From positions 1 through 36,258 of IMG/VR virus record IMGVR_UViG_3300037511_000277: a stretch of 36,258 bases of DNA; one strand, 5' to 3'. Each line of letters opens with the position of its first letter. The first letter of the stretch is position 1. Both the position numbers and the translations under genes were made by a program. The notes under the pieces were generated by a model, which did no database searches, was not told the DNA's origin, and saw nothing but the letters and a program-made list of their open reading frames with translations. Shown one piece after another: positions 2,028 to 36,000 of the stretch. The DNA is from a virus. Taxonomy: Duplodnaviria; Caudoviricetes.

Positions 2028-3470
2028 TCAATACGCAAACTTCCGCAGGCGCACGTTCCCGGTGCCCAGGACGCGCCGCGTCACGTCATGACTCAGCGAC
2101 TGGCGCATGTGGCCCACCGTCCCAGGCGGGTAGGCCATCTCCACTTGGGCCTCGGGCGGCGCCTGGCGCGAGGTGGCGATGTAGCGCACCACATCCATCG
2201 CGTGATCTTCGGTGTCGGTGTCGATGTCTTCCGGCTTCTGCTCGTCCATCGTCACTTCGCCGAAGGTGCGGATGGTGTAGGCGCAGCGGGGATGCACGCG
2301 CAGGAACGGCTGGCCGTCGGGGCGATTCCGCAGCCAGGCCCGCACCCGCGCCCAGCCGTTGACGCGATCGTTGTCGGCGCGCTCGCACGGCACCCCATGC
2401 TTGCGGAACGTGTCGAAGTAGGTTTCCGCGCTCTCGTGGCCGCGCTGTTCGTCCATCGACGGGTCAGCGTAGGTGCGGCGGATGGTGAGCCCGCGCGCTT
2501 TCGTGCGGCGGGTGATTTCTTCCGCCACTTCGCGCGCAATCAGCCGCGTCCGCGTCGGGCCGTTGAACACGAATTCGTCCTCGATGTCGAGGAACCCGTC
2601 CGGGTGGAAGCACGCCCACAGATACACGCCGGGGCTGTTGTAGCCCCAGTCCAGGCCGCCGACGCGCGGGAAGCTCGCGGGCGCGGGCTCGAATTCCTGC
2701 ACGTGCACGAGGCGGCGGAATTCAGGGAAGAACTGGCCGAGGAAGATGTCCCAGTCGCCATCGCGATACGCGCGCCGCAGTTCCGGCGGCAGGCGATTGA
2801 GCATCTTCATGTACTGCTTCCAGTCGAGGAACGGATTGTCGGACGGCAGCGCCGGGATGTACTCGTAGTCCTCCGGTCGGTAGTCCGGGTCCTCGTCCTC
2901 GGTCACGTCCTTGTCGATCCAGCGCCGCTTGACCCAGCGCGCCGCGCCGCCGGCGGGATTGGTGGCGCCGCCGACCCGCGGCGTCAGGCCGGGGATGGTG
3001 GTGCGGCAGCAGCTCGAAATGGACAAGTACTGGAACTCGGTGAACGTGACGATTTCATCGAAGCTCTGGCGGTCGTACTCGGCGGAGAGGTACTGGTCCA
3101 CGTCCGTCTCGTGCTGGCAGTGCCCGAACTCGATGAGGCTCCCGTTGGGGAAGTAGAGCACGCCGGCGCCGACATCGGAGGGTTTCCATGTCGCGCCCAG
3201 GAGCTGCGCCTCGGCGGGCACGAAGCGGAGGTGCGAGCGCTGCAGGTCTACCAGCTTGCGGCGGACGATGAGCGATTTCATCCCGGGGACGGCGAGTGAG
3301 GGCAGGTAGTGGTCCCAGCGCAGCGCCTTGGATTTCCCGCAGCCGCGGGAGCCGCCGTACAGCGGGTAGGGCGCCTTGGAGTTGTGATAGGCGACCTGCT
3401 TGGCGAACGGCTGGTAGACGACCTTGCCGTTGATGCGGACCTCGCCGCCCTCCAGGAACCCGGTGCTCAT
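2028..3470 (-). CDS. terL: Terminase large subunit
   Basis: Walker A YGGSRGCGKS, Walker B SFDE, coupling motif ATNP, nuclease motifs GLDWG and DHAMDVVRY; 480 aa. Confidence 0.95.
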   Translation of the reverse strand: MSTGFLEGGEVRINGKVVYQPFAKQVAYHNSKAPYPLYGGSRGCGKSKALRWDHYLPSLAVPGMKSLIVRRKLVDLQRSHLRFVPAEAQLLGATWKPSDVGAGVLYFPNGSLIEFGHCQHETDVDQYLSAEYDRQSFDEIVTFTEFQYLSISSCCRTTIPGLTPRVGGATNPAGGAARWVKRRWIDKDVTEDEDPDYRPEDYEYIPALPSDNPFLDWKQYMKMLNRLPPELRRAYRDGDWDIFLGQFFPEFRRLVHVQEFEPAPASFPRVGGLDWGYNSPGVYLWACFHPDGFLDIEDEFVFNGPTRTRLIAREVAEEITRRTKARGLTIRRTYADPSMDEQRGHESAETYFDTFRKHGVPCERADNDRVNGWARVRAWLRNRPDGQPFLRVHPRCAYTIRTFGEVTMDEQKPEDIDTDTEDHAMDVVRYIATSRQAPPEAQVEMAYPPGTVGHMRQSLSHDVTRRVLGTGNVRLRKFAY

Positions 3471-14860: not shown

Positions 14861-15037
14861 ATGCGCATGCTGATCGCGATCGTCGGCACCGGGGTGCTCG
14901 CGGCGGTGGTGCTGGGGGCCCTGCCGCTCGCATGGGGGTTCGTGGCGCTGTCGCTCTATCTCCTCATCAGCTTCGCGGCGATCTACGACCTGCTGCAGCC
15001 CCTGCCGCGCATCCCGCCCGATGAGGACGACGACTGA
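14861..15037 (+). CDS. 58-aa two-TM protein
   Basis: MRMLIAIVGTGVLAAVVLGALPLAWGFVALSLYLLISFAAIYDLL...; SD GGAGGA; TGATG overlap with integrase. Confidence 0.65.
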   Translation: MRMLIAIVGTGVLAAVVLGALPLAWGFVALSLYLLISFAAIYDLLQPLPRIPPDEDDD

Positions 15038-16137
15038 TGCCACGCCGCGGTCGCCGCATCCGCCTCGCCAAGCACATCTCGAAGGACAAGAGCGGCTACA
15101 GCGTCCGCATCGAAAGCGGTGGTCGCCCGATCGAACGGCGCTTTCCGCTGTCCACACCGTACGAGACGGTAAAGACGTGGCGCGATGACGAACTGCGCCG
15201 GCGCGAGGACATGGCCGTCGCCGAGTCGGCCGAGGCGGGTTATTTCGATTTCGACGCAAAAAAGTACTTGGCCGCCGTGCGGGCGATGCCGGAATACGCC
15301 CAGCGGGCGCGCGACATCGACTTGTGGTGCGCGCGGTTCAAGGGCCGCCGACGGGACAGCATTCAGCCACTCGATATCCGATGCGCCAGAGACGAGTGGC
15401 TGACCGTGGGGCCGAAGCTGGTCCAACGGCGTGTGGGTGGAGAGCGGCGGTGGATGCCCGTCCCGAAACCGCTCTCCGCCAGCACGGTGAACAAGCGGCT
15501 CCGCGCCCTGGAGAACCTCTGGACGGTCCTCGATGGGCGCAAGGCGTACAACCCCGTGCGCGAAGTCCCCGAGCCGCAGGAGCCGGATGCGGCCCCGCGT
15601 GGCCTGTCCTACGCCGTCGTCGAGCGCATCCTGGATCAGATGCAGCCCTCGCAGACGCGCGCCCGGCTGCGGGTCATGGCCTACACCGGCCTGGCGCAGG
15701 TGGAGATCGCCGGCTTGGCGCGCGCGGACGTAGACCTCGAGTCTGGCACCGTGCTGGTCAGGCGACGCCGGAAGGGCCGCAACGGGAAGATGGCGCCGCC
15801 CGCGCTCCATCCGCTGACGCCCGAAGGGGTCGAGGCGTTTAAGGAATTCCGCCGTGAAAATTGTTGGGGCGACTTCAGCCGCAGCTCGATGTGGAAAGCG
15901 TTCCAGCTGGCGGCCGGCGCCGCCGGGTACCACGGCCTGCGGCCCTACGACTTCCGCCACTCCTACGGCACCGCGGTCTTCCGCTCGACCGGGGACCTCG
16001 CGGCCACGCAGGGCATGCTTCGGCAGCGCAGCGGCGTCACCACCCTACGCTACGTCGCCGCGGCGATCGCGCCCAGGGCACGGCTGGCGGCGGAGGCGTT
16101 CGCCAGACAGGTTGCCGCCGACCGCAAACAGGGATAG
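15037..16137 (+). CDS. int: Tyrosine recombinase / phage integrase (non-canonical active-site motifs)
   Basis: LSASTVNKRLRAL, YTGL.Q.EI, RPYDFRHSYGT, TGDL..TQ.ML.....TT.RY; adjacent to attP. Confidence 0.9.
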   Translation: MPRRGRRIRLAKHISKDKSGYSVRIESGGRPIERRFPLSTPYETVKTWRDDELRRREDMAVAESAEAGYFDFDAKKYLAAVRAMPEYAQRARDIDLWCARFKGRRRDSIQPLDIRCARDEWLTVGPKLVQRRVGGERRWMPVPKPLSASTVNKRLRALENLWTVLDGRKAYNPVREVPEPQEPDAAPRGLSYAVVERILDQMQPSQTRARLRVMAYTGLAQVEIAGLARADVDLESGTVLVRRRRKGRNGKMAPPALHPLTPEGVEAFKEFRRENCWGDFSRSSMWKAFQLAAGAAGYHGLRPYDFRHSYGTAVFRSTGDLAATQGMLRQRSGVTTLRYVAAAIAPRARLAAEAFARQVAADRKQG

Positions 16138-16213: not shown

Positions 16214-16540
16214 ATGGCTGAACAGGATTCTACCCCAGTTAGGGAAGGCGCTTTTCTCGCAGGACCACTACGTGATCTGGCGGAGCACATGGAGCCGCGC
16301 GACGCGGATCTACTTCGCTGCGCCGCGACGATTTTGGAGCGCGGGCCACAATGGGAGTCGATAGAAACGGCGCCCAGAGACGGCGCCAGTATCTTGCTGT
16401 ACGACCACGGCGTCACGATCGGACGCTTTGAAGCCTATTCAGCATATGAAGGCGCGTGGGTCGTGAACCTCGTGTCGAACACGTCGCTTATTCGTATCCG
16501 TCCCACGCGCTGGATGCCGCTGCCCGCGCCACCGGAATAG
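16214..16540 (+). CDS. DUF551-like phage protein
   Basis: W.SIETAPRDG..IL...PTRWMPLPAPP motif; SD GGAGG. Confidence 0.75.
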   Translation: MAEQDSTPVREGAFLAGPLRDLAEHMEPRDADLLRCAATILERGPQWESIETAPRDGASILLYDHGVTIGRFEAYSAYEGAWVVNLVSNTSLIRIRPTRWMPLPAPPE

Positions 16541-16583
16541 GCGAAGCCGGGAACCGAAGCCGGGAGAACCGCGAAATCCTGAG

Positions 16584-16599
16584 CGTTTCACGTGGAACT
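16584..16599. promoter_or_regulatory. parS-like centromere palindrome
   Basis: cGTTTCACGTGGAACt; the central 14 bp match the bacterial chromosomal parS consensus TGTTNCACGTGAAACA (read on the minus strand). Confidence 0.7.
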
Positions 16600-16604
16600 G
16601 AAGG

Positions 16605-16651
16605 GCCTTTTAAGCGGTTGGTCGCGCGTTCGATCCGCGCACGCCCCACCA
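16605..16651 (+). other. attP core: 3' half of a tRNA-Lys(TTT) gene
   Basis: Anticodon loop CTTTTAA (16607-16613), T-arm GCGCG-TTCGATC-CGCGC, acceptor 3' strand ACGCCCC-A-CCA; 5' half of the tRNA absent; downstream of integrase. Confidence 0.85.
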
Positions 16652-16832
16652 TAAAATCAGGCCCAAATCGATAGACGAACGGTCGCGGCGGGACGGGAAC
16701 GGACGGCTTCAAAGGGGCGAAGCCGGGAGAACAGCCGGGAACCTCAACGGGAGAAGAATCGGGCGGGCCGGACGCCAACACATCGGTTGAAGCGACCACA
16801 GTGCAAGCTCCCCCGGCCCGCCAGAACGTGAC

Positions 16833-17312
16833 TCAGGACGCGGACCAGATGCGTACGAGGCGCGCGCTGCACAGGAACATCCCCGGCGACACGAGGTCGG
16901 CGTCGTAGGCATCCTGGAAGGGCTCCAGCCGGCCATGCCGGAGGAGCCGCGTCACATACTCGCTGCAGAACTGCTTGTCCATCGACTGCTGCCCCCACGT
17001 GTAGAAGCGCAGCAGCCCCAGCCAGTCATAGACCTGCCCGATGCAGGCGGTGTGGAACGCCTTGACGCCCGTCATGTCGAGCGCGGTAGCCGGCCGCAGG
17101 ATGTAGGCCAGCTCCTCGCGCCGCAGCGGGTAGGTGTTCACGCCCAGCCCGTCTCGGCTCGCTGCCGTCAGGCCCTCCCCCAGCACCAGCTCGCAGTGCG
17201 TCACCTTCGACCAGGTCTTGACGCTGATCACCCAGGCGTTGAAGTTGTGGCCGCTGTAGAGCAGCACGTCTCCCGGCTGGACAAAGGTCAGCGGATCCGG
17301 CAGGGCCTCCAT
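16833..17312 (-). CDS. Permuted papain-like amidase (YiiX/YebB-like NlpC/P60)
   Basis: QPGDVLL...THCELV...G..YDW...FCSEYV...SPG: His before Cys, the permuted order. Confidence 0.85.
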   Translation of the reverse strand: MEALPDPLTFVQPGDVLLYSGHNFNAWVISVKTWSKVTHCELVLGEGLTAASRDGLGVNTYPLRREELAYILRPATALDMTGVKAFHTACIGQVYDWLGLLRFYTWGQQSMDKQFCSEYVTRLLRHGRLEPFQDAYDADLVSPGMFLCSARLVRIWSAS

Positions 17313-17467
17313 CAGCCTTCCTTCTGCACGGCAGTCTCGGCGGCCTTGATCAGCTCATCGAGCCATTCGTCCAGGTGGTCGAGCACGATCTGTTTGAGCA
17401 CCGGCTTGATGTCCGGAAGCAGGATCGGCAGCAGCTTGGCGAGAATGGGACCGAGGTCGATACGCAT
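17312..17467 (-). CDS. 51-aa amphipathic protein
   Basis: MRIDLGPILAKLLPILLPDIK...; SD GGAG; TGATG overlap with amidase. Confidence 0.65.
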   Translation of the reverse strand: MRIDLGPILAKLLPILLPDIKPVLKQIVLDHLDEWLDELIKAAETAVQKEG

Positions 17468-17478
17468 GTCTGTCTCCG

Positions 17479-17685
17479 TCAGTGAATGAACTTCCCGATG
17501 AGCGCGCCCGCGACGAGCCCTGCGCCCGCGCCGATGAGGCCCGCCTTGACCTTGAGCATGGTGATGTCGATCCGGGCGTGATCGAGCTTCTCGTCCAGCC
17601 GCTCCACCCGCCGGTCCAGCGCGTCGAGCTTGTCCAGGATCAGCAGCTTGTACTCGTCGAAGTGGCTCAGCACCGGGGGAGTCAT
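17479..17685 (-). CDS. Holin-like protein (coiled coil plus C-terminal TM)
   Basis: LDKLDALDRRVERLDEKLD then AGLIGAGAGLVAGALIG. Confidence 0.55.
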   Translation of the reverse strand: MTPPVLSHFDEYKLLILDKLDALDRRVERLDEKLDHARIDITMLKVKAGLIGAGAGLVAGALIGKFIH

Positions 17686-18095
17686 AGCCGCTTTCGGCGC
17701 ACCACCGCCACCGCATAGATGCCGGCCGCCGTCACGACGGGGCTCAAGTTGATCTCCAGCGGCACCTCTTCGCCGGTGCGGCGCAGGCCCTTCAGGTCAT
17801 GTCCGAGGCCCATCGGCCGCACGCGCGGGTCGGCGAAGAACGCGCGCCGGTGCTGAACGTGCCGCTCGCGCACATCGGCCGGCAGCAGCATCTCAAGCTG
17901 ATTGCCCAGCACGTCCTGTCGCGGGTAGGCGAAGATCAGTTCGGCCTGCGCGTTCATGAAGCGCACCGTGCCGCTCTCGTCGATGACGAGCACGCCATCG
18001 GGCAGCACTTCGAGGATGCGCGCGAGCAGATCCGGGTCGAGGATGATCCCCGGCTCGCTCAACTGGCGCAGGCGATCGAACTGCGGGTCGGTCAT
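17682..18095 (-). CDS. Stand-alone PAS-domain protein
   Basis: ILEVLPDGVLVIDESGTVRFMNAQAELIFAY...LG..LEMLLP...RERH...GLRRTGEEVPLEINLSPV: complete PAS S-box fold with no output domain. Confidence 0.9.
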   Translation of the reverse strand: MTDPQFDRLRQLSEPGIILDPDLLARILEVLPDGVLVIDESGTVRFMNAQAELIFAYPRQDVLGNQLEMLLPADVRERHVQHRRAFFADPRVRPMGLGHDLKGLRRTGEEVPLEINLSPVVTAAGIYAVAVVRRKRL

Positions 18096-18096
18096 G

Positions 18097-18273
18097 TCAA
18101 CAACGCCGCCAAAGACCTGTTTCTGTACCAAAAAATGTGGCCAGAATCAGCAGCACCACGAGGAGCGCAATCACGCGGATGACTTTCTGAAATTCCGGCG
18201 GCGCGATCATCTCGATCAGAATCACGGCGATGACCACCGCTACGAGTGCGAACAGCAGGCCGATGAGTGTCAT
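18097..18273 (-). CDS. 58-aa two-TM membrane protein (possible holin/antiholin)
   Basis: MTLIGLLFALVAVVIAVILIEMIAPPEFQKVIRVIALLVVLLILATFFG...; SD GGAG. Confidence 0.7.
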   Translation of the reverse strand: MTLIGLLFALVAVVIAVILIEMIAPPEFQKVIRVIALLVVLLILATFFGTETGLWRRC

Positions 18274-18378
18274 TCAGCGCTCCGGGTGGACTGTTTTTTG
18301 ATCCGAAGGTCGGTCGAGTGCCTCGGGCACCGCGATCTCCTTCACCTTGCCGCCGACAACGATCTTCACAATACGCAT
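18274..18378 (-). CDS. 34-aa peptide
   Basis: MRIVKIVVGGKVKEIAVPE...; exactly fills the gap between neighbours. Confidence 0.4.
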   Translation of the reverse strand: MRIVKIVVGGKVKEIAVPEALDRPSDQKTVHPER

Positions 18379-18384
18379 TCGATT

Positions 18385-19467
18385 TCAACGCTCCAGATCC
18401 ACCGTGTTTCCGTCGTAGCCGTACACGCGCGTTACCCTCCAGCCATTCACGGGCTGCAGCGCCCAACCGGGACGCGGGCTGACGACGACCGCCGTCGCGC
18501 GCGAGCCTGCAATCATCGCGAAGGTCCGCAGGGCGAGGTCATCGCTGTGCGCGATGGGGCAGGTCGGCATGCCGCCGCGCGTGTACGTCCCGACCGCGGC
18601 GAGGTCAGCAGGCGGCGGGTCAGCCCAGACGGCCGCAACCGCCTGCGCGACGCTCTGGTCTGCCGGGATGCGGCAGCGCTGCAGGGTGTCCCCGTCGCCA
18701 TGCAGGCAGGCCCCAGACGCGAAGAGTTCGGCGACCGCGACGTAATCCGCATACTGGCGCGGCGTGGCGTTCTGCAGGCGCTCAGGCTCGCCCGCGATGG
18801 CCGGCTTGTTCGTCGGCGGGAAGTCGCCGATGCCGAGCCGCGAGGTTTCGAGCAGGTTCTTCGACTTGCGCTCCCACCCATCACCGCGCGGCGTGTGCTC
18901 CGTGGTGAAGTCGAGCACGCTGCCAGCTTCGAGCGGTGTGTTGCCGTCCTCCCAGGACGAGCGAGTGGTCAACAGCGTGCCGGTGAAAGGCTTCAGCCGG
19001 CCGGCGATTGCGCCATTTTTCCAGTCCTCGTTGACCAGTTCGAGTAAGGCATTGTCATGCCAACTGAGTACATTCGCCACACGCTGAACATGGTCCGCCT
19101 GTTCCTCCTCTGACATCAGCACCGAGCTGCCAGATATTTGGTCGGTGAAGGCGACGAAGTGCAGGCGCAGGCCACAGGCAGCTAGGATTGAACACAACTG
19201 ATGTAGGTTGGCGTAGTACTTATCGCCGTAGCGCCGCGGATCGAAATCGGTCACCGACCACATGCCAAACACGCGTACGGTGTTCGTACCGAGCGACAAG
19301 GCCCAGTAGAGGAAATCCTTCGCGGCCTCGCTATCTTGGAACAGCGTGAACGCCGTCACGGCGCGGTACTTCCACGGCCGCCCCGCGTCGAGGAAGTTGA
19401 CGCCGCTGGTGGTGAGTCTCCCGAGAGGCCCCGCCGGTGGAGACGGCGGATCGACGGGGCCTACTGG
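18385..19467 (-). CDS. Glycoside-hydrolase-like TIM-barrel domain (clan GH-A-like), start-less frame probably reached by -1 frameshift
   Basis: GTNTVRVFG, ELVNE (acid/base-like) and IAGEP (nucleophile-like) motifs; preceded by a Pro-rich linker with no start codon or SD. Confidence 0.7.
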   Translation of the reverse strand, partial: PVGPVDPPSPPAGPLGRLTTSGVNFLDAGRPWKYRAVTAFTLFQDSEAAKDFLYWALSLGTNTVRVFGMWSVTDFDPRRYGDKYYANLHQLCSILAACGLRLHFVAFTDQISGSSVLMSEEEQADHVQRVANVLSWHDNALLELVNEDWKNGAIAGRLKPFTGTLLTTRSSWEDGNTPLEAGSVLDFTTEHTPRGDGWERKSKNLLETSRLGIGDFPPTNKPAIAGEPERLQNATPRQYADYVAVAELFASGACLHGDGDTLQRCRIPADQSVAQAVAAVWADPPPADLAAVGTYTRGGMPTCPIAHSDDLALRTFAMIAGSRATAVVVSPRPGWALQPVNGWRVTRVYGYDGNTVDLER

Positions 19468-19473
19468 GGGTCC
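19416..19473 (-). other. Candidate programmed -1 ribosomal frameshift signal
   Basis: G_GAC_CCC_CAG_UAG followed by 11-bp stem AGGCCCCGUCG/CGGCGGGGCCU whose loop GUCUCC can pair with downstream GGAGAC (H-type pseudoknot). Confidence 0.55.
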
Positions 19474-20714
19474 TCGGGGCCTGGGCCAATCTGGGCCTTG
19501 TACGCCCGAATGGCGGCGTCCGTGCCGAGATCGAAGGCGGCATTCCACTCCTCGGCGCCGTTCAGGCCCCGTCCGAGGTCGATACACCGCTGCGCGACGG
19601 CGGCCGCGATCGCGCGATGGTAGAACGCCAGCGCGCCGCGGCTCGGCACGTCGCCGCCCTGGTCGCGCAACCAAACATGGTCGCGAAAGCGCGCAAGGTG
19701 GTCCACATCGACATCCCAAGGCCACGCGGCCAAGGTGTCACGAATCTGCTGCGGGGTCACGGACATCGTCGGCTCCGGGGGGAGGGGCGGATCTGGAATC
19801 GGGTCAGGCGGTGGCGGTGGCGGCGGTGGAATGACGACATCGCGCGGCACCGGCCCGCGCGCCGCATCGCGCGGCACGGTGGTCGTGCGCAGCTGGCCAC
19901 CGCCGTCCACCGCGACGATCGACCACTGGTCGCCGATGGGACGCACCCGCAGCCACGTCGCCACGAGATCGACGACGATGCAGTCCTGCTCGCCGTAGGG
20001 CCGCCCCAGGACGAGCGATCGGCCGCCGGGGCTGGTCGTGGCCGTCCACAGCCAGAGCGTGCCGTCAGGCGCCTGCACGGGCACCGGGGGGCCTTCCTGC
20101 CGCCACGGCGTGACCGTCACGAGTTCGTTCGCGGTGGCGCCGTTCCGCGACAGCCAGCTCTCGCCGTTGTAGCCGCTGCCGACGTTCCCCTGCGCGTCGA
20201 GCGTGAGCGCGTTGCCGTTCGCCGGGATGCGCACCTTCCGCTGCAGCACGCCCCCGGTGTAGTGCCAGAACTGCGGGGCGCCGTCGGTATCGACGCTGAC
20301 GTGGATCAACTGCTCGCCGGCCACCGAGCCGCCATCGTAGCCGCGCCCTGAGAAGAGGAACGTGCCGTCGTACCAGACCGCGGCGACGCCCTGCTGCGCG
20401 CGGACCGACAGCCAGTGACCATCGGCCGCCCGCATCGTGTTCCCGCCTACGTCCGCTGCCAGCAATGCCGGGGGCGTCTCAAACGAGGCGACCCAGAGGT
20501 CGTCGCTGCCCTCGGGCCGGTAGGCGAACAGTACGTCATTCAGCCAGCCCACGGCGCGTCCGGGGCCGATCTCGACGACGCGCTGCCGATCGGCCGAGAT
20601 GAGCCGCACTGTCGGCGGGTCGGTGCGCGTCCCGCCCCCGCCGCAGCCGAGATCGCCGCGCGCGTTCTGCTCGGCGTTCCAGCCGTCGGTGAAGGGGGCG
20701 GTCCAGATCGCCAT
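19461..20714 (-). CDS. Multi-domain protein (beta-rich N-terminal region, poly-Pro linker, helical domain); N-terminal part of the putative GH fusion
   Basis: 417 aa; PPPPPPPPDPIPDPPLPPEP linker. Confidence 0.8.
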   Translation of the reverse strand: MAIWTAPFTDGWNAEQNARGDLGCGGGGTRTDPPTVRLISADRQRVVEIGPGRAVGWLNDVLFAYRPEGSDDLWVASFETPPALLAADVGGNTMRAADGHWLSVRAQQGVAAVWYDGTFLFSGRGYDGGSVAGEQLIHVSVDTDGAPQFWHYTGGVLQRKVRIPANGNALTLDAQGNVGSGYNGESWLSRNGATANELVTVTPWRQEGPPVPVQAPDGTLWLWTATTSPGGRSLVLGRPYGEQDCIVVDLVATWLRVRPIGDQWSIVAVDGGGQLRTTTVPRDAARGPVPRDVVIPPPPPPPPDPIPDPPLPPEPTMSVTPQQIRDTLAAWPWDVDVDHLARFRDHVWLRDQGGDVPSRGALAFYHRAIAAAVAQRCIDLGRGLNGAEEWNAAFDLGTDAAIRAYKAQIGPGPEDPQ

Positions 20715-20715
20715 A

Positions 20716-21042
20716 CTACGCAGCCGGCGTGTTGGCGGTCACCGCGGCGGCGAGGTCGTTCTTGGCCGCGTCGAGGGCCGCGTTGGCGGCGTCGATCTTC
20801 GCGAGCACCGCGGGATCGGTGACGCCATTCTTCAGGTCGGCGATGATGGCCGACAGGCCGTTCAGCAGCGTCACCGCGCTCTGTTCAACCGTCTTCATCT
20901 GCTCAACTTCGGCGGTCAACGCGTCGATCTTGTCGCTCAATGCACTCATCGTTTGCTCCATCTTCTGAAGGGCCGCCATGATCTTCGTCAACAGGGCGGT
21001 GACGGGATCATCGGAAGCGTGTACGTAGACATCGATTCGCAT
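20716..21042 (-). CDS. Coiled-coil phage protein
   Basis: MRIDVYVH...IDALTAEV...LAAAVTANTP; SD GAGGAG. Confidence 0.75.
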   Translation of the reverse strand: MRIDVYVHASDDPVTALLTKIMAALQKMEQTMSALSDKIDALTAEVEQMKTVEQSAVTLLNGLSAIIADLKNGVTDPAVLAKIDAANAALDAAKNDLAAAVTANTPAA

Positions 21043-24055: not shown

Positions 24056-24801
24056 TACCAGACTCCTCCGCGGACTCCGCCGCGTAGTTGCATCGCCGTC
24101 ATGAAGGGCACCCCGCCGTGCCGTTTTTCGATCGGTTGGTCCGTTCCACCGCCGCCTGTGGCCGGCGCGATGGTGATGACTACATGCACAATTGCGAGCC
24201 CGAAGGGATTACTGCTGCGCGTGGTCTGAATGCTATAGGGTGACCCTGCGGTTACCGGTCCGCCGCTGTCGAAAATGCCCCATCCGCCATTGGTGGCGTC
24301 AAAGGTCCGTCGGGTTGCGCCGGTACCAGCCCCCGGTGCCGCACCGCTGTTGTAACAACCCTCTACGCAGACGACCCAACAGTTCGCGGCACTCGGCGTA
24401 ATTGAGGTCGTCAGCGAGGTCGCGCCGGGGCTGCTGAAATTCGTCGTCGAATTGTCCGGCAGTCCGCTCTGCAGCACCCCTGAGTACGACACCGCTCCGC
24501 CCTGGATCAGGTGCGAACTGGCCGCGCCGATCGACAATGTGTGAGAGCCTGTTGCCGGCCCGAGCAATCCATCGATGTACGTGATACGGTCTCCGCTGGC
24601 CGCGACTGTGATCTTCTGCAGGAACGACATCGCCACGGAGTTGTAGGTCCGTGAGTTGATATCGTCCGCGCCGCCGATGTTGTCGCCGTTGTAGCAGGCG
24701 AGGACCAAGTCCCCGGCGACATTGTTAAACGCAGCCGACAGGGGCGACGCTCCGCCCCCGTTGTTCCCCAGATCCACGGCGCTGTCGAAAGCGATGGCCA
24801 T
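24055..24801 (-). CDS. Beta-rich virion decoration/fibre-like protein
   Basis: MAIAFDSA..., G/S/T/A-rich, within structural module. Confidence 0.65.
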   Translation of the reverse strand: MAIAFDSAVDLGNNGGGASPLSAAFNNVAGDLVLACYNGDNIGGADDINSRTYNSVAMSFLQKITVAASGDRITYIDGLLGPATGSHTLSIGAASSHLIQGGAVSYSGVLQSGLPDNSTTNFSSPGATSLTTSITPSAANCWVVCVEGCYNSGAAPGAGTGATRRTFDATNGGWGIFDSGGPVTAGSPYSIQTTRSSNPFGLAIVHVVITIAPATGGGGTDQPIEKRHGGVPFMTAMQLRGGVRGGVW

Positions 24802-25100
24802 TACCGAATTTTCCGCACTTCCGTCTTCACGTCCTTGACCTCGCCGCGCAGCGAGGTGATGTCGTACTGAATCTGCGAGAGCTGCAGCGACACGACGGCG
24901 CGGTTCGTCTTCGACTCGGTGCCATCCGCGGCCATCTGCGCCATCGACGCTTCGAGGTGCGCGACGCGCTGCTCAATCTGCGCATGAAACGAATACTGGT
25001 CGCCGATCCACATGCCGAGGCTGACGAGAAACAAGCCCGTTGCGACGATGTTCGGCCCGGTGAACAACGACTTCCAGAATCCGCGCGTGTCGTCCGTCAT
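24801..25100 (-). CDS. TM plus coiled-coil protein
   Basis: IVATGLFLVSLGMWIG TM then heptads; SD GGAGG. Confidence 0.7.
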   Translation of the reverse strand: MTDDTRGFWKSLFTGPNIVATGLFLVSLGMWIGDQYSFHAQIEQRVAHLEASMAQMAADGTESKTNRAVVSLQLSQIQYDITSLRGEVKDVKTEVRKIR

Positions 25101-33020: not shown

Positions 33021-33977
33021 TTACGTTCCGCTCGGAAACCACGCGCCGAGCCGCGACGGCCGATCGAAGTCGCGCCGTGGCGGCGTCGGCAGATCCCACA
33101 GCCAGCGATTCAAGCTCTTTTCGGCCTCCGCGAGGTCGCTGCGCACGAGCGAGTAGCGGCTGTCATCGCGCCGCTTCAGCTCCTCGCATTGCGCGCCGAG
33201 CGACAGCATGAAGTGATAGTCGGGCGGCAGTTGCGGCTCGTCCTGATCTGATTCCAGGTTGCGCAGCTCCCCGGTGAAGTCGCACGTGTAGGTCAGCGAC
33301 GCCGAGGGCGTCGGCCAGAGCTGTACCTGGAAGTAGCGCGCCTTCGTGCGCCCCGGCTGAATCACGCCCAGCGTGGCGCCCGCGCCGCTCGTCTGCGTGA
33401 ACGTGATCGTCAGGCCCGTGCTCGGCCCCTGATAGGTGAGGCCCAGCACCTGCACGATCGTCGAGGCTGTCCCGAGCTGCACCGCCGTCGTGCCGTTGAG
33501 CGCCGTGACGCCGGTCGAGCGCTGCCCGTTCGACAGCAGGAAGTCCCAGCCGATCTGCGTCGTATCCGAGCCACTCGACACGGCGTAGACCTTGTCGGCG
33601 CTGGACGGATGATTGGCGACCGGGAACCAGCCCTTCGGGATGTAGGCGCTCGGCGTGCCGCTGGTGTTCATCGCCGACGACTGATAGCGCAGCCATGACA
33701 GGTCGCGCAGCCGCAACGACCAGCGATTGGTGATGTCGTAGACGCCGTTCAAGCGGCCCATCGGCTCCGCGAAGCCGTAGACCGCCTGGCCCGTGGTCGT
33801 CGTCAACGTCTCCTCGAAGTCACGGAGCAGCCGCGCGAATCCGGGCTGTGTCAGGAGCCGCCGGTGCCACGTGTTGATGCCGCGCTTGATGCGCGTACGC
33901 GCTTCGCTCTGCGTGCCACTCGTCAGCGAGTAGCCCAGCGCGTCGAGCGCGTCGTCGGCGAGTTCAGCGAACGTCAT
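33021..33977 (-). CDS. Head-tail adaptor / tail tubular protein A-like
   Basis: MTFAEL...IN...; G.P..Y; LWPTP; D.P.LP.DYH motifs. Confidence 0.75.
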   Translation of the reverse strand: MTFAELADDALDALGYSLTSGTQSEARTRIKRGINTWHRRLLTQPGFARLLRDFEETLTTTTGQAVYGFAEPMGRLNGVYDITNRWSLRLRDLSWLRYQSSAMNTSGTPSAYIPKGWFPVANHPSSADKVYAVSSGSDTTQIGWDFLLSNGQRSTGVTALNGTTAVQLGTASTIVQVLGLTYQGPSTGLTITFTQTSGAGATLGVIQPGRTKARYFQVQLWPTPSASLTYTCDFTGELRNLESDQDEPQLPPDYHFMLSLGAQCEELKRRDDSRYSLVRSDLAEAEKSLNRWLWDLPTPPRRDFDRPSRLGAWFPSGT

Positions 33978-34404
33978 CGTGCCATCCGTGTGCCCGTGCC
34001 CAGGGTTGCGCCCGCCGCTGCACCACCGCGTAGAAGCGACGGAACGGCCGCGACCGCGTCAGGCGATCCTCCAGATTCAAACAAGCTCCCTGCGCGTCCT
34101 GCTCCCACGCCTCACCCGTCACGCGGCCGCAGAGGAAGCGCCGACAGGAGTACGGCCGCACCGCGTAGACCGTGCACAAGCCCTTCCCAGCCGCATCGCG
34201 CCGGAAGTAGGGGCAAGGCCGTGCCCGTAAGAACACCCAGCCATCCGCCTGCGTGACGAACTCCGCGGCGACTTCGGGCCGCGCCGCCATGAGCGCGTCT
34301 CGCTCCTGCGCGGTCAGCGTCACGCCGATCGGCTGCGTGCAGCAGTCGCCTTCGCGGCGACACTGCCAGGGCACCTCGACAGGCCGCAGCGGAATGACGC
34401 GCAT
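33964..34404 (-). CDS. YkgJ-family (CxxCxxCC-type) Fe-S/Zn cysteine-cluster protein
   Basis: CRREGDCC...CPYF...C.VY..RP..CR.F.C; the second Cys of the motif is replaced by Glu. Confidence 0.8.
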   Translation of the reverse strand: MRVIPLRPVEVPWQCRREGDCCTQPIGVTLTAQERDALMAARPEVAAEFVTQADGWVFLRARPCPYFRRDAAGKGLCTVYAVRPYSCRRFLCGRVTGEAWEQDAQGACLNLEDRLTRSRPFRRFYAVVQRRAQPWARAHGWHDDVR

Positions 34405-34931
34405 CAGATCAGCGCCGGCACGCCTTCCACCATCTCGCGCAGCATGTCGGTCATCGAGCGCGGCAGGTTCGCGCGCACGTCCGGGTCCTTGCACGGGAAC
34501 AGCACCAGCAGCTCCTGCGTATTCGCCACGCCCGGCCGCAGGTTCATCACCGTCCAGTTGCCGTTGTGATAGAGGCCCGGCTGCAGCTGGTTGACGAGAT
34601 CGATCTCCGGCTTCGTCAGTTCGTCCTTGTGCAGGAGGTAGCCGAGCCAGAACACTTTGCCGACCAGCTCTGGCCGCGGCGCGTTCTTCTCGCCGAGCGG
34701 GTTGAAGACCGAGATGCCCGGGTAGCTGCCGACGTTCCACCACTGGCCCGAGAGCTTCTCGAAGACATCGGCCCCGGCTTTCGTGGCCACTTCGGCGATG
34801 GCACTCGCATCCAAGCGATTGCCGGCGACCAGCTCCCGTACGACCGCAAGCAGGTCATCCCGTGTCAGGCCCGGCGCGGTCGGGGCCGGTATCTCTTGCG
34901 TCGGCGGTGGTTTCTGTTCGTCCTTGGCCAT
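34404..34931 (-). CDS. Hypothetical protein
   Basis: MAKDEQK..., SD AGGAG, 175 aa. Confidence 0.75.
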   Translation of the reverse strand: MAKDEQKPPPTQEIPAPTAPGLTRDDLLAVVRELVAGNRLDASAIAEVATKAGADVFEKLSGQWWNVGSYPGISVFNPLGEKNAPRPELVGKVFWLGYLLHKDELTKPEIDLVNQLQPGLYHNGNWTVMNLRPGVANTQELLVLFPCKDPDVRANLPRSMTDMLREMVEGVPALI

Positions 34932-34938
34932 AGCTCTC

Positions 34939-36000
34939 CTAAATGAACGCCGAGTGGAGCCCGTCCTCCATGAACGCGCGTTCCACGAGGGTGTTGTAGC
35001 CCGCGTAGCGACACGGGGCACATTTCGTCACGTCGATCGCATCGACCATCGCGCGATGCTGGTCGTTCCACCACACGTCCTTGAAGGCGTGCTGCAAGAC
35101 CGAGCCGGCGCGGAAGTTCGGCAGGCCCCGCATCTGGCAGCAGTGGTAGATGTAGCCGTCGGCGTTGATGACCGTGGTCAGCGGGCCGATGTGGCAGGCG
35201 TTGAACGGCTTCGCCGCGCCCTGCAGCTGATCGAAGCGCGACACCATGCCGATAACCCGGAAGTGATCCGTCGCGAGCGCCTTGGCCCGCTCCAGCGCCG
35301 CACGCGCGCGATCGACGTTGGCATCCGAGAGCGCCCGCGAGAAGCCGCCGCCGCGCCATTCCGTCGCGAAGACGGGTCGCACCTCGAGGTAATTGCCGCC
35401 GGCGTCGCGCACCAGTTCGGCCGCGCGCTCGATCTCATCGACGTTGCAGTCGAAGACACAGAAGGACGCGCCCAGCGTCAGGCGATCGCCCGCCATCTCA
35501 CGCGTTTTGCGGATGTTCGCGAGGATCGCGTCCAGTTCGGGTTTCGGGGTCGCGTGCAGGAGCTGATGCGTTTGCGGCGTACCGGCGTCCAGACTGATCC
35601 GACAGAACACAGCGTGCTTCGCGATCATCTCGCGCGCATCGCCCAGGAGCAGGCGCCCATTCGTGACGACGCCATACTGCAACCCCTGTTCGTTCGCGGT
35701 GTAGAAGATGACCGGCGCATGCTTGTGGGTCAGCGGTTCCCCGCCGCCCGTGAACGTCACCGACTTGACCCCCACCGCCGCAAACTCGTGCATCAGCGCG
35801 ACCGCGCGCGCCATCGGAAACTGCACCCAGTTCTCTTGCCGGAAGCCGTTGAAGCTGCACCACGGACACCCGTGATTGCAGGTGTTGGACAAGTCGAATT
35901 CGACCGAGACGGGATAGACCACTTCGTGACGCAGCATCGCCTCGATGCGATCGCCGTGCCGCAGCAACTTCATCGGCTGGAAAGGAGACACTTCAAGCAT
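34939..36000 (-). CDS. Radical SAM protein with C-terminal SPASM/Twitch-type domain
   Basis: CNHGCPWC (CxxxCxxC), GGGEP, TNG, ISLD; C....INADG.IY.CC...G.V....F..VW...C..C. Confidence 0.93.
   Translation of the reverse strand: MLEVSPFQPMKLLRHGDRIEAMLRHEVVYPVSVEFDLSNTCNHGCPWCSFNGFRQENWVQFPMARAVALMHEFAAVGVKSVTFTGGGEPLTHKHAPVIFYTANEQGLQYGVVTNGRLLLGDAREMIAKHAVFCRISLDAGTPQTHQLLHATPKPELDAILANIRKTREMAGDRLTLGASFCVFDCNVDEIERAAELVRDAGGNYLEVRPVFATEWRGGGFSRALSDANVDRARAALERAKALATDHFRVIGMVSRFDQLQGAAKPFNACHIGPLTTVINADGYIYHCCQMRGLPNFRAGSVLQHAFKDVWWNDQHRAMVDAIDVTKCAPCRYAGYNTLVERAFMEDGLHSAFI

Follow-up and report, generated by a model that had tools for sequence, protein, structure and literature searches.

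Among the described systems closest to the locus considered here, VqmA-Phage has a PAS-HTH architecture, and XhlA-type proteins are holin-associated proteins for which we know of no sensor partner. FG214 is the haem-PAS domain of an HTH-PAS one-component regulator of Fimbriimonas ginsengisoli (PDB 10jx/10jy), and its N-terminal helix is described as being released on haem reduction or ligand binding (PMC13060918). In PAS domains of the FixL/DosP type (cluster 3), the histidine of the F-alpha helix is given as the primary determinant of haem binding (PMC10468136). Lysis-control papers describe the timing of lysis as set by holin accumulation and, in T4, also by antiholins that respond to superinfection; T4 RIII binds the N-terminal helix of the holin T (PMC12162936).

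Here, we analyse a pair of small genes in an uncultured phage, using its entire 36,258-nt virus record (hereafter the window), which is an incomplete genome, since its left end truncates a portal-like gene. A PAS gene and the coiled-coil gene directly downstream of it (17479-17685, with one predicted transmembrane (TM) segment) form a conserved unit, and pairs of this kind recur in dozens of uncultured phages. The features discussed below are collected in Table 1.

Table 1 Features of the window and endolysin-type genes near haem-type modules on other contigs (L numbers).
Feature	Location	Strand	Basis and remarks
Terminase	2028-3470		Tailed-phage gene, window
Integrase	15037-16137		Temperate-phage marker, window
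Permuted papain-like (YaeF-like) enzyme	16833-17312	-	Last late-operon gene; NF008552 E 5.5e-6 (below cut-off), phrog_1128 E 3.9e-21
Amphipathic ORF, 51 aa, downstream	17312-17467	-	Variable, outside the unit; replaced in an X1 contig, joint 17301-17472
Conserved partner, 68 aa	17479-17685	-	N-terminal (W/F)xEY(R/K)(R/L)L helix, coiled coil, one predicted C-terminal TM (49-67), 1-residue tail
Stand-alone haem-type PAS protein, 137 aa	17682-18095	-	Pfam PAS, PDB matches, AF2 model, homologues
Predicted haem pocket	17811-17861	-	His79 (17859-17861) proximal; His82; Arg93; Met95 (17811-17813) candidate distal ligand
N-terminal amphipathic helix, residues 4-13 (FDRLRQLS), putative docking helix	18057-18086	-	Helix 4-12 in model
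Two-TM small membrane protein, 58 aa	18097-18273	-	Two hydrophobic peaks; adjacent, outside the conserved unit
phrog_181 endolysin-type gene	L004, 3.7 kb from module; L005, 3.4 kb
Amidase	L013, 0.8 kb from module
VanY	L017		Overlaps module
Endolysin-type gene	L019, 0.8 kb		Holin and spanin between
Lysozyme	L022, L049		Overlaps module
M15_4	L026, L056		Overlaps module; L026 below cut-off
Endolysin-type gene	L021, 3.4 kb; L027, 3.8 kb; L043, 1.1 kb

A stand-alone PAS protein with a predicted haem pocket

The PAS reading frame starts with the ATG at 18095 and comprises 137 codons and a stop; an in-frame upstream TTG would lengthen the product to 149 aa, and homologues begin at the Met equivalent to ATG 18095. 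An N-terminal helix, a linker, an A' helix, the PAS core and a basic tail make up the protein. A first-pass annotation of this DNA had described a 137-aa single PAS domain devoid of kinase or output domain, and this description held: Pfam PAS (PF00989) covers residues 24-133 (E 2.9e-15; 56.7 bits vs a cut-off of 22.6), and no domain follows. The gene junctions it reported were likewise confirmed on re-reading the coordinates, with the PAS stop overlapping the partner ATG as ATGA (17682-17685) and the upstream gene, in which hydropathy gives two hydrophobic peaks, stopping 1 nt before the PAS start. The AF2 model of the PAS protein (pLDDT 81) matches PAS structures at TM ~0.7, and the PDB entries nearest to the protein, in sequence as well as in fold, are haem-PAS domains, those of FG214, DosP and FixL.

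The proposal that a FixL-like segment places a His at the position of the proximal haem ligand was also borne out: an ungapped alignment puts His79 on the F-alpha His of FixL, DosP and FG214, the residue by which haem PAS domains of the FixL/DosP type are recognised. Across 31 homologues, H79 and R93 are retained in all (31/31 each), M95 in 30 and H82 in 27. In the alignment with FG214, H156, H159 and M172 correspond to H79, H82 and M95 (PMC13060918), and the distal H175 is not kept, being Gly98 in the window PAS. Judged by these residues, the window PAS likely binds haem, and His/Met ligation is our best guess. The oxygen chemistry of FixL is not supported. In the FixL R220A structure, Arg220 falls on position 99 of the PAS protein, where the window PAS has His and no Arg220 equivalent; this position varies among the 31 homologues (Leu in 12, Gln in 5, His in 4, Arg in 2), so stable O2 binding of the FixL type is not implied.

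The PAS gene and its partner form a conserved unit

Strict scans that started from the PAS found the partner directly downstream in all five loci recovered (L001-L005; three metagenome and two viral contigs), with tandem PAS genes in two of them (L004 and L005). Scans that started from the partner gave 43 distinct IMG/VR contigs (17 from the first scans and 26 new), in which the gene directly upstream of the partner encodes a Pfam PAS in 26 (25 over the cut-off and L016 below it), a protein judged PAS-like by eye in 2, a cupin in 1 and a 73-aa helix-only protein in 2, the remaining 12 being sensor-less; many of these contigs are near relatives, so the counts are not independent. The sensor stop overlaps the partner start in 20/23 tabulated pairs, and every sensor ORF match adjoins a partner (52/52, from 61 sequences), three having been flagged for no other reason than that the contig ends before the partner does. 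Pairing in the reverse direction is looser, this partner being found with 14 of 47 viral haem-type PAS matches (8 of them already known).

The first-pass annotation had coupled the PAS to both of its neighbours. Our data uphold this for the downstream coiled-coil/TM gene (5/5 strict loci) and not for the upstream two-TM gene, which is variable and is skipped in a relative. A joining of PAS and partner by programmed frameshift was considered and rejected because their overlaps (-4, -8, -11, -14 and -17 nt) lie in different frames; a search for a fused PAS-partner protein among 7,993 candidates of 175-2000 aa found none, which is weak evidence.

Several contigs carry variants of this arrangement. 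The cupin (L024:3561-3947; Cupin_2, E 2e-8) has the common N-terminal helix and an ATGA overlap with the partner gene, and helix-only proteins of 73-79 aa occupy the sensor slot at L045/L050:3756-3977 and L057:2158-2397, the last on a contig filed under a Candidatus Woesebacteria MAG yet carrying phage head genes. PAS_3-type sensors of a large-phage group (L029, L038, L039 and L041) end in C-x-x-C, which could serve as a site for metal binding or redox chemistry. In L003, the last part of the head-protein gene directly upstream of the PAS (22-648) looks, by eye, linked to an intein or endonuclease. A different membrane family with the motif L-H-S-P-H was seen near haem-type PAS genes in six contigs; stand-alone haem-type PAS genes beside a membrane family with L-H-S/K-P-H/T occur in L063, L089, L096, L112/L115, L122 and L123, with two PAS in tandem in L112/L115 and L122.

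A helix shared by unrelated sensors

Haem-type PAS, PAS_3-type PAS and cupin sensors begin with the same amphipathic helix. A helix profile was trained on haem-type proteins alone, with its threshold at the 95th percentile of 338 background families. Of 14 non-haem sensors (half of them, seven, from a single large-phage group), 11 scored above threshold, against 0/6 non-sensor upstream genes; among 419 host PAS domains, 12% did so. Viral haem PAS carry the helix in 9/9 cases with a W.EYRRL partner (eight are training sequences or near copies, so that only L074 is independent), in 0/5 whose partner N-helix is changed and in 4/36 with other neighbours. From this co-occurrence of the sensor helix with the W-x-E-Y-R-R-L helix of the partner, which is indirect evidence, we infer helix-to-helix recognition, in which the two helices likely constitute a docking pair. 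A tight interface is disfavoured by five contigs that retain the pair without the sensor N-helix and by the divergence between the window and L001, where partners are just 53% identical and PAS domains 93%.

The partner protein

The partner is modelled as a single continuous helix (residues 4-67, pLDDT 90). Its family comprises 128 homologues among 7,994 scored, and in 23/23 tabulated members the hydrophobic segment is C-terminal with a tail of 1-6 aa; the membrane segment is conserved as K-x-K-A-G-x-W-G-A-x-x-G. Look-alike clusters are listed as viral, which leaves no host homologue for the partner to mimic. Most members tested (43/61) match phrog_1103, a family of unknown function.

Both neighbours of the PAS had been called holin-like in the first-pass annotation, a term that describes their shape and that no holin match in Pfam, PHROGs or NCBIfam turned into an identity. 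None was found for the window partner in these three collections, and the best 25 of 35 Pfam and best 25 of 45 PHROGs families matched by 61 partner members include no holin family. Weaker matches were to phrog_1193 'hemolysin' (7/61), to XhlA (PF10779; 3/61, best E 0.012, short of significance) and to DUF2730 (1/61, E 0.065), whose releasins have an N-terminal TM where the partner has a C-terminal one.

Genome setting and neighbouring genes

The window looks like a temperate tailed phage by its gene content, which in Pfam and PHROGs searches also includes repressor-like HTH genes and a Gp77 tail adaptor. The far end of the late (-) operon holds the PAS locus, which tail genes precede and the integrase follows. 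In a separate study, an X2 contig spans 17552-18083 across the PAS-partner junction with 18 differences and 0 gaps. No promoter-like or terminator-like site was found in a scan of 16500-18500. Among the datasets listed as carrying the window sequence, the best DNA match is a soil metagenome, which may be where the window comes from, and none is an RNA dataset. When 50,697 GenBank phages were searched by tblastn, with two partners and PAS proteins of two types as queries, no cultured carrier was found, just two matches at E 0.8 being returned, and the partner motif occurs in one GTDB contig, a short MAG contig bearing phage head genes.

Immediately upstream of the PAS, the two-TM gene has, in the closest relative (L001), a Thivi_2564-family counterpart that is 32% identical over 31 aa, and it is absent from an X2 contig (joint 18092-18407). 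Searches of Pfam, PHROGs and NCBIfam gave no holin family for it, and its position is not conservedly beside an endolysin. The same three collections gave no family match for the 51-aa ORF downstream of the partner. The product of 16833-17312 is a candidate envelope hydrolase by its family matches; in L036, too, a gene of phrog_1128 comes after the module.

Further upstream, ORFs 19461-20714 and 18385-19461 (-) overlap within a proline-rich linker, which suggests one multi-domain protein of ~775 aa split by a frameshift or read error. Its C-terminal part resembles GH5/apiosidase barrels, whose nearest clusters are mostly from Acidobacteriota and give a hint that the host may belong to this phylum. 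A PDB sequence search with the papain-like and GH-like proteins gave no useful match. The coiled-coil protein at 20716-21042 (-) looks by eye like L019:2292-2567, L021:6329-6814 and L027:4246-4590, some with His-rich starts; these look-alikes come after the sensor-partner module, and phmmer gave no link. The product of 24801-25100 (-) has an N-terminal TM and a coiled coil, with a weak match to DUF2730 (the Mu releasin family) below the cut-off (E 0.0073), and is possibly a second lysis-related membrane protein. The virion gene block includes a radical SAM/SPASM enzyme and a CxxCxxCC protein (33964-36000, -).

Evolution and viral distribution of the PAS family

From 55 candidates, 17 proteins were found, of which 15 are full-length homologues or clusters (137-144 aa, 60-96% identity). 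By the measure of dN/dS, the PAS is under purifying selection (0.13 for the window and L001; 0.02, 0.02 and 0.06 in three further pairs). A quick tree set 19 phage or orphan copies against the 45 best-scoring host domains; 18 of these copies fell in one clade (SH-aLRT 96), with L017 unplaced. The low dN/dS and the single clade argue that this is not a freshly captured host fragment. Frameshifted copies at L003 and L021, which may be read errors or decay, would fit a recent and functionless capture, but the start, the end and the partner are all conserved as well, and a lone fragment lacking synteny, one of the outcomes by which the first-pass annotation would have its idea refuted, is not what the contigs contain; we regard functionless capture as extremely improbable.

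A relaxed scan of IMG/VR for the haem-type motif returned 70 stretches, 47 with a profile match. The protein extends no more than 33 aa beyond the PAS in 46 of these 47 cases, with no case inside a long kinase, so the output-less haem-type PAS is the usual viral form. The sole match with a long C-terminal extension is L076:1981-2868 (-), where the PAS is followed by what appears by eye to be a receiver-like domain. Three scans of viral contigs with close patterns gave no match. Large host proteins carry this PAS type abundantly (2,883 representatives at E<=1e-30 among 1.8 billion searched), and multi-PAS proteins dominate among them.

Proximity to lysis genes

When haem-type contigs were sorted by eye into groups, an endolysin-type gene lay 0-3.8 kb away in 8 groups (Table 1); the survey excludes L036, whose contig ends too soon, and L048. 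A lysozyme search of five records gave 0/5, and other endolysin types lie near four of them (L004, L005, L013 and L027). The haem-type contigs L074 (in a head/virion block), L068, L071, L083 and L087 have no lysis gene within 2.5 kb among the 33 of 41 called genes listed, and the L003 module comes after a head gene. Around 20 non-haem or sensor-less loci (~4 kb), the only holin match was in L051 and there was no endolysin match (for the last 101 genes, among the 90 listed). In the window, an incomplete contig, no endolysin or holin family was matched among the genes scanned; the permuted papain-like enzyme and the GH5/apiosidase-like protein are endolysin candidates.

Small late genes also cluster near lysis cassettes for other reasons. 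A role in lysis timing is plausible for the haem-type branch, given these neighbourhoods. Since no holin family appears among the listed matches and separate holins occur beside the partner, the partner is more likely a regulator than a pore.

A proposed mechanism and its alternatives

Our tentative reading, which we hold to be somewhat short of an even prospect, is that the PAS-partner module is a haem-gated regulator that would tune lysis timing by the oxygen or redox state of the host. The PAS would dock on the predicted membrane-anchored partner, and the state of the host, in oxygen or redox terms, would influence a late step at the membrane, most probably when lysis occurs. Quite probably, His79 carries haem b and Met95 serves as its switchable distal ligand, an arrangement seen in one FG214 structure. 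A shift in the redox state or ligation of the haem might then move the N-terminal helix, much like the helix release of FG214, a step about which we are doubtful. That the sensor N-helix pairs with the N-terminal helix of the partner seems likely. Through its K-x-K-A-G-x-W-G-A-x-x-G segment, the partner could, with no better than guarded confidence, affect either a separate holin or the export of the endolysin; it would be a regulator and not a pore. More broadly, the unit may be a modular post-translational switch, in which the docking helix loads interchangeable sensors (haem PAS, other PAS or cupin) on a tail-anchored helix and the haem version delays or triggers lysis according to oxygen or redox state, neither a kinase nor transcription being involved, although we think this generalisation rather unlikely.

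The same unit may instead have an output other than lysis: the tail-anchored helix would bind a membrane protein of the host, be it a kinase, a cyclase, a transporter or a defence effector, and tune host physiology or superinfection, in late infection or in the lysogen. We rate this as unlikely though possible, and as nearly as likely as the lysis reading. Non-haem versions with the same partner family and docking helix lie between baseplate hub and primase or in head modules, away from lysis genes, and the window has no recognised endolysin; however, eight haem-type groups lie within 3.8 kb of an endolysin, five contigs overlap one (L017, L022, L026, L049 and L056), and the viral look-alike clusters of the partner offer no host homologue that it could mimic. 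Action of the pair in virion assembly at the membrane, for example in anchoring proheads or tails under sensor control, is suggested by its place in head or tail blocks of L003, L020, L045, L057, L074 and the large-phage group, and by sensor-less partners in head blocks (L006, L009, L014 and L018). Its position varies widely, though, among phages whose virion genes are unrelated, no structural gene being its constant neighbour, and we consider such a role improbable.

Were the coiled-coil/TM protein itself the holin, the PAS would be its ligand-gated cytoplasmic antiholin, as T4 RIII is for the holin T. No holin family is among the best matches of 61 members, a separate holin lies nearby in L019 (Phage_holin_10, E 4.8e-17) and L051, the partner is often far from lysis genes, and with a tail of 1-6 aa it has no periplasmic domain. 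These points leave the holin reading a slim prospect despite the place of the partner directly before a lysozyme or M15 peptidase in L022, L049, L026 and L056, the weak 'hemolysin' and XhlA matches, and a cytoplasmic N-helix with one TM that is loosely like T4 T (PMC12162936). The earlier suggestion of a decoy interfering with host PAS kinases fared no better. The PAS would form heterodimers with host multi-PAS kinases or cyclases, or sequester haem, and the partner would be only a tether. The abundance of this PAS type in large host proteins would fit such a decoy, but a partner that stays constant while the sensor slot holds unrelated PAS types, a cupin or a helix alone is left unexplained, and the phage copies form their own clade and do not track host domains, which makes a decoy or haem sink a poor candidate.

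If the PAS-partner module does tune lysis timing, lysis control would gain a further route, in which a cofactor sensor acts on a membrane protein directly, and with the haem version the release of phage would follow oxic-anoxic shifts in soils and sediments. With an output other than lysis, the docking helix common to unrelated sensor folds would still define a two-protein signalling unit that has not been described before. The small size of both genes makes them amenable to testing in E. coli.

Comparison with known systems

The first-pass annotation knew of no described system with a PAS beside holin-like genes, and our literature search agrees: no description of the PAS-partner module was found in sources mostly outside the subscription journals, FG214 being only the nearest. 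By sequence, the module combines a known domain with an unnamed helix, and it falls outside FixL, the FG214-type regulators, the holin families, XhlA and the releasins.

FG214 is the top match of the window PAS in sequence and fold (E 1.3e-15; TM 0.73), and its H156, H159 and M172 are kept. The window PAS differs in having no HTH (only 23 residues precede the PAS) and Gly98 in place of the distal His175, and is thus not a one-component regulator of the FG214 type; the output of FG214 is DNA binding, whereas that of the window PAS would be a separate membrane protein. FixL and DosP (PDB 1dp6, 1y28 and 1s66) share the PAS type and the gapless F-alpha His, but the window PAS has neither kinase nor phosphodiesterase, and against the FixL sensor kinase model (NF041777) it scores 46.9 bits vs a cut-off of 850, with both the distal Arg220 and the kinase absent.

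XhlA (PF10779; PBSX and SPP1) resembles the partner in having a soluble helix and a C-terminal TM. The Mu gp25 releasin (DUF2730) is described as a small membrane-tethered cytoplasmic protein near the endolysin gene that regulates lysis and is not a holin, but its topology is opposite (N-terminal TM), and the available text mentions no sensor partner (PMC9239132). VqmA-Phage of vibriophage VP882 is a phage sensor that couples a chemical cue to the lytic programme (PMC8284805); it is a transcription factor at the lysis-lysogeny decision, whereas the window PAS has no DNA-binding domain and lies in a late operon. The closest working analogy is T4 T/RIII, in which a soluble cytoplasmic protein acts on the N-helix of a single-TM protein in lysis control (PMC12162936, PMC11413866). 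In the scans, however, neither T nor RIII was matched as a family, the partner lacks a periplasmic domain, and any holin activity of the partner would be hypothetical; the available text on RIII mentions no cofactor-sensing role (PMC12162936).
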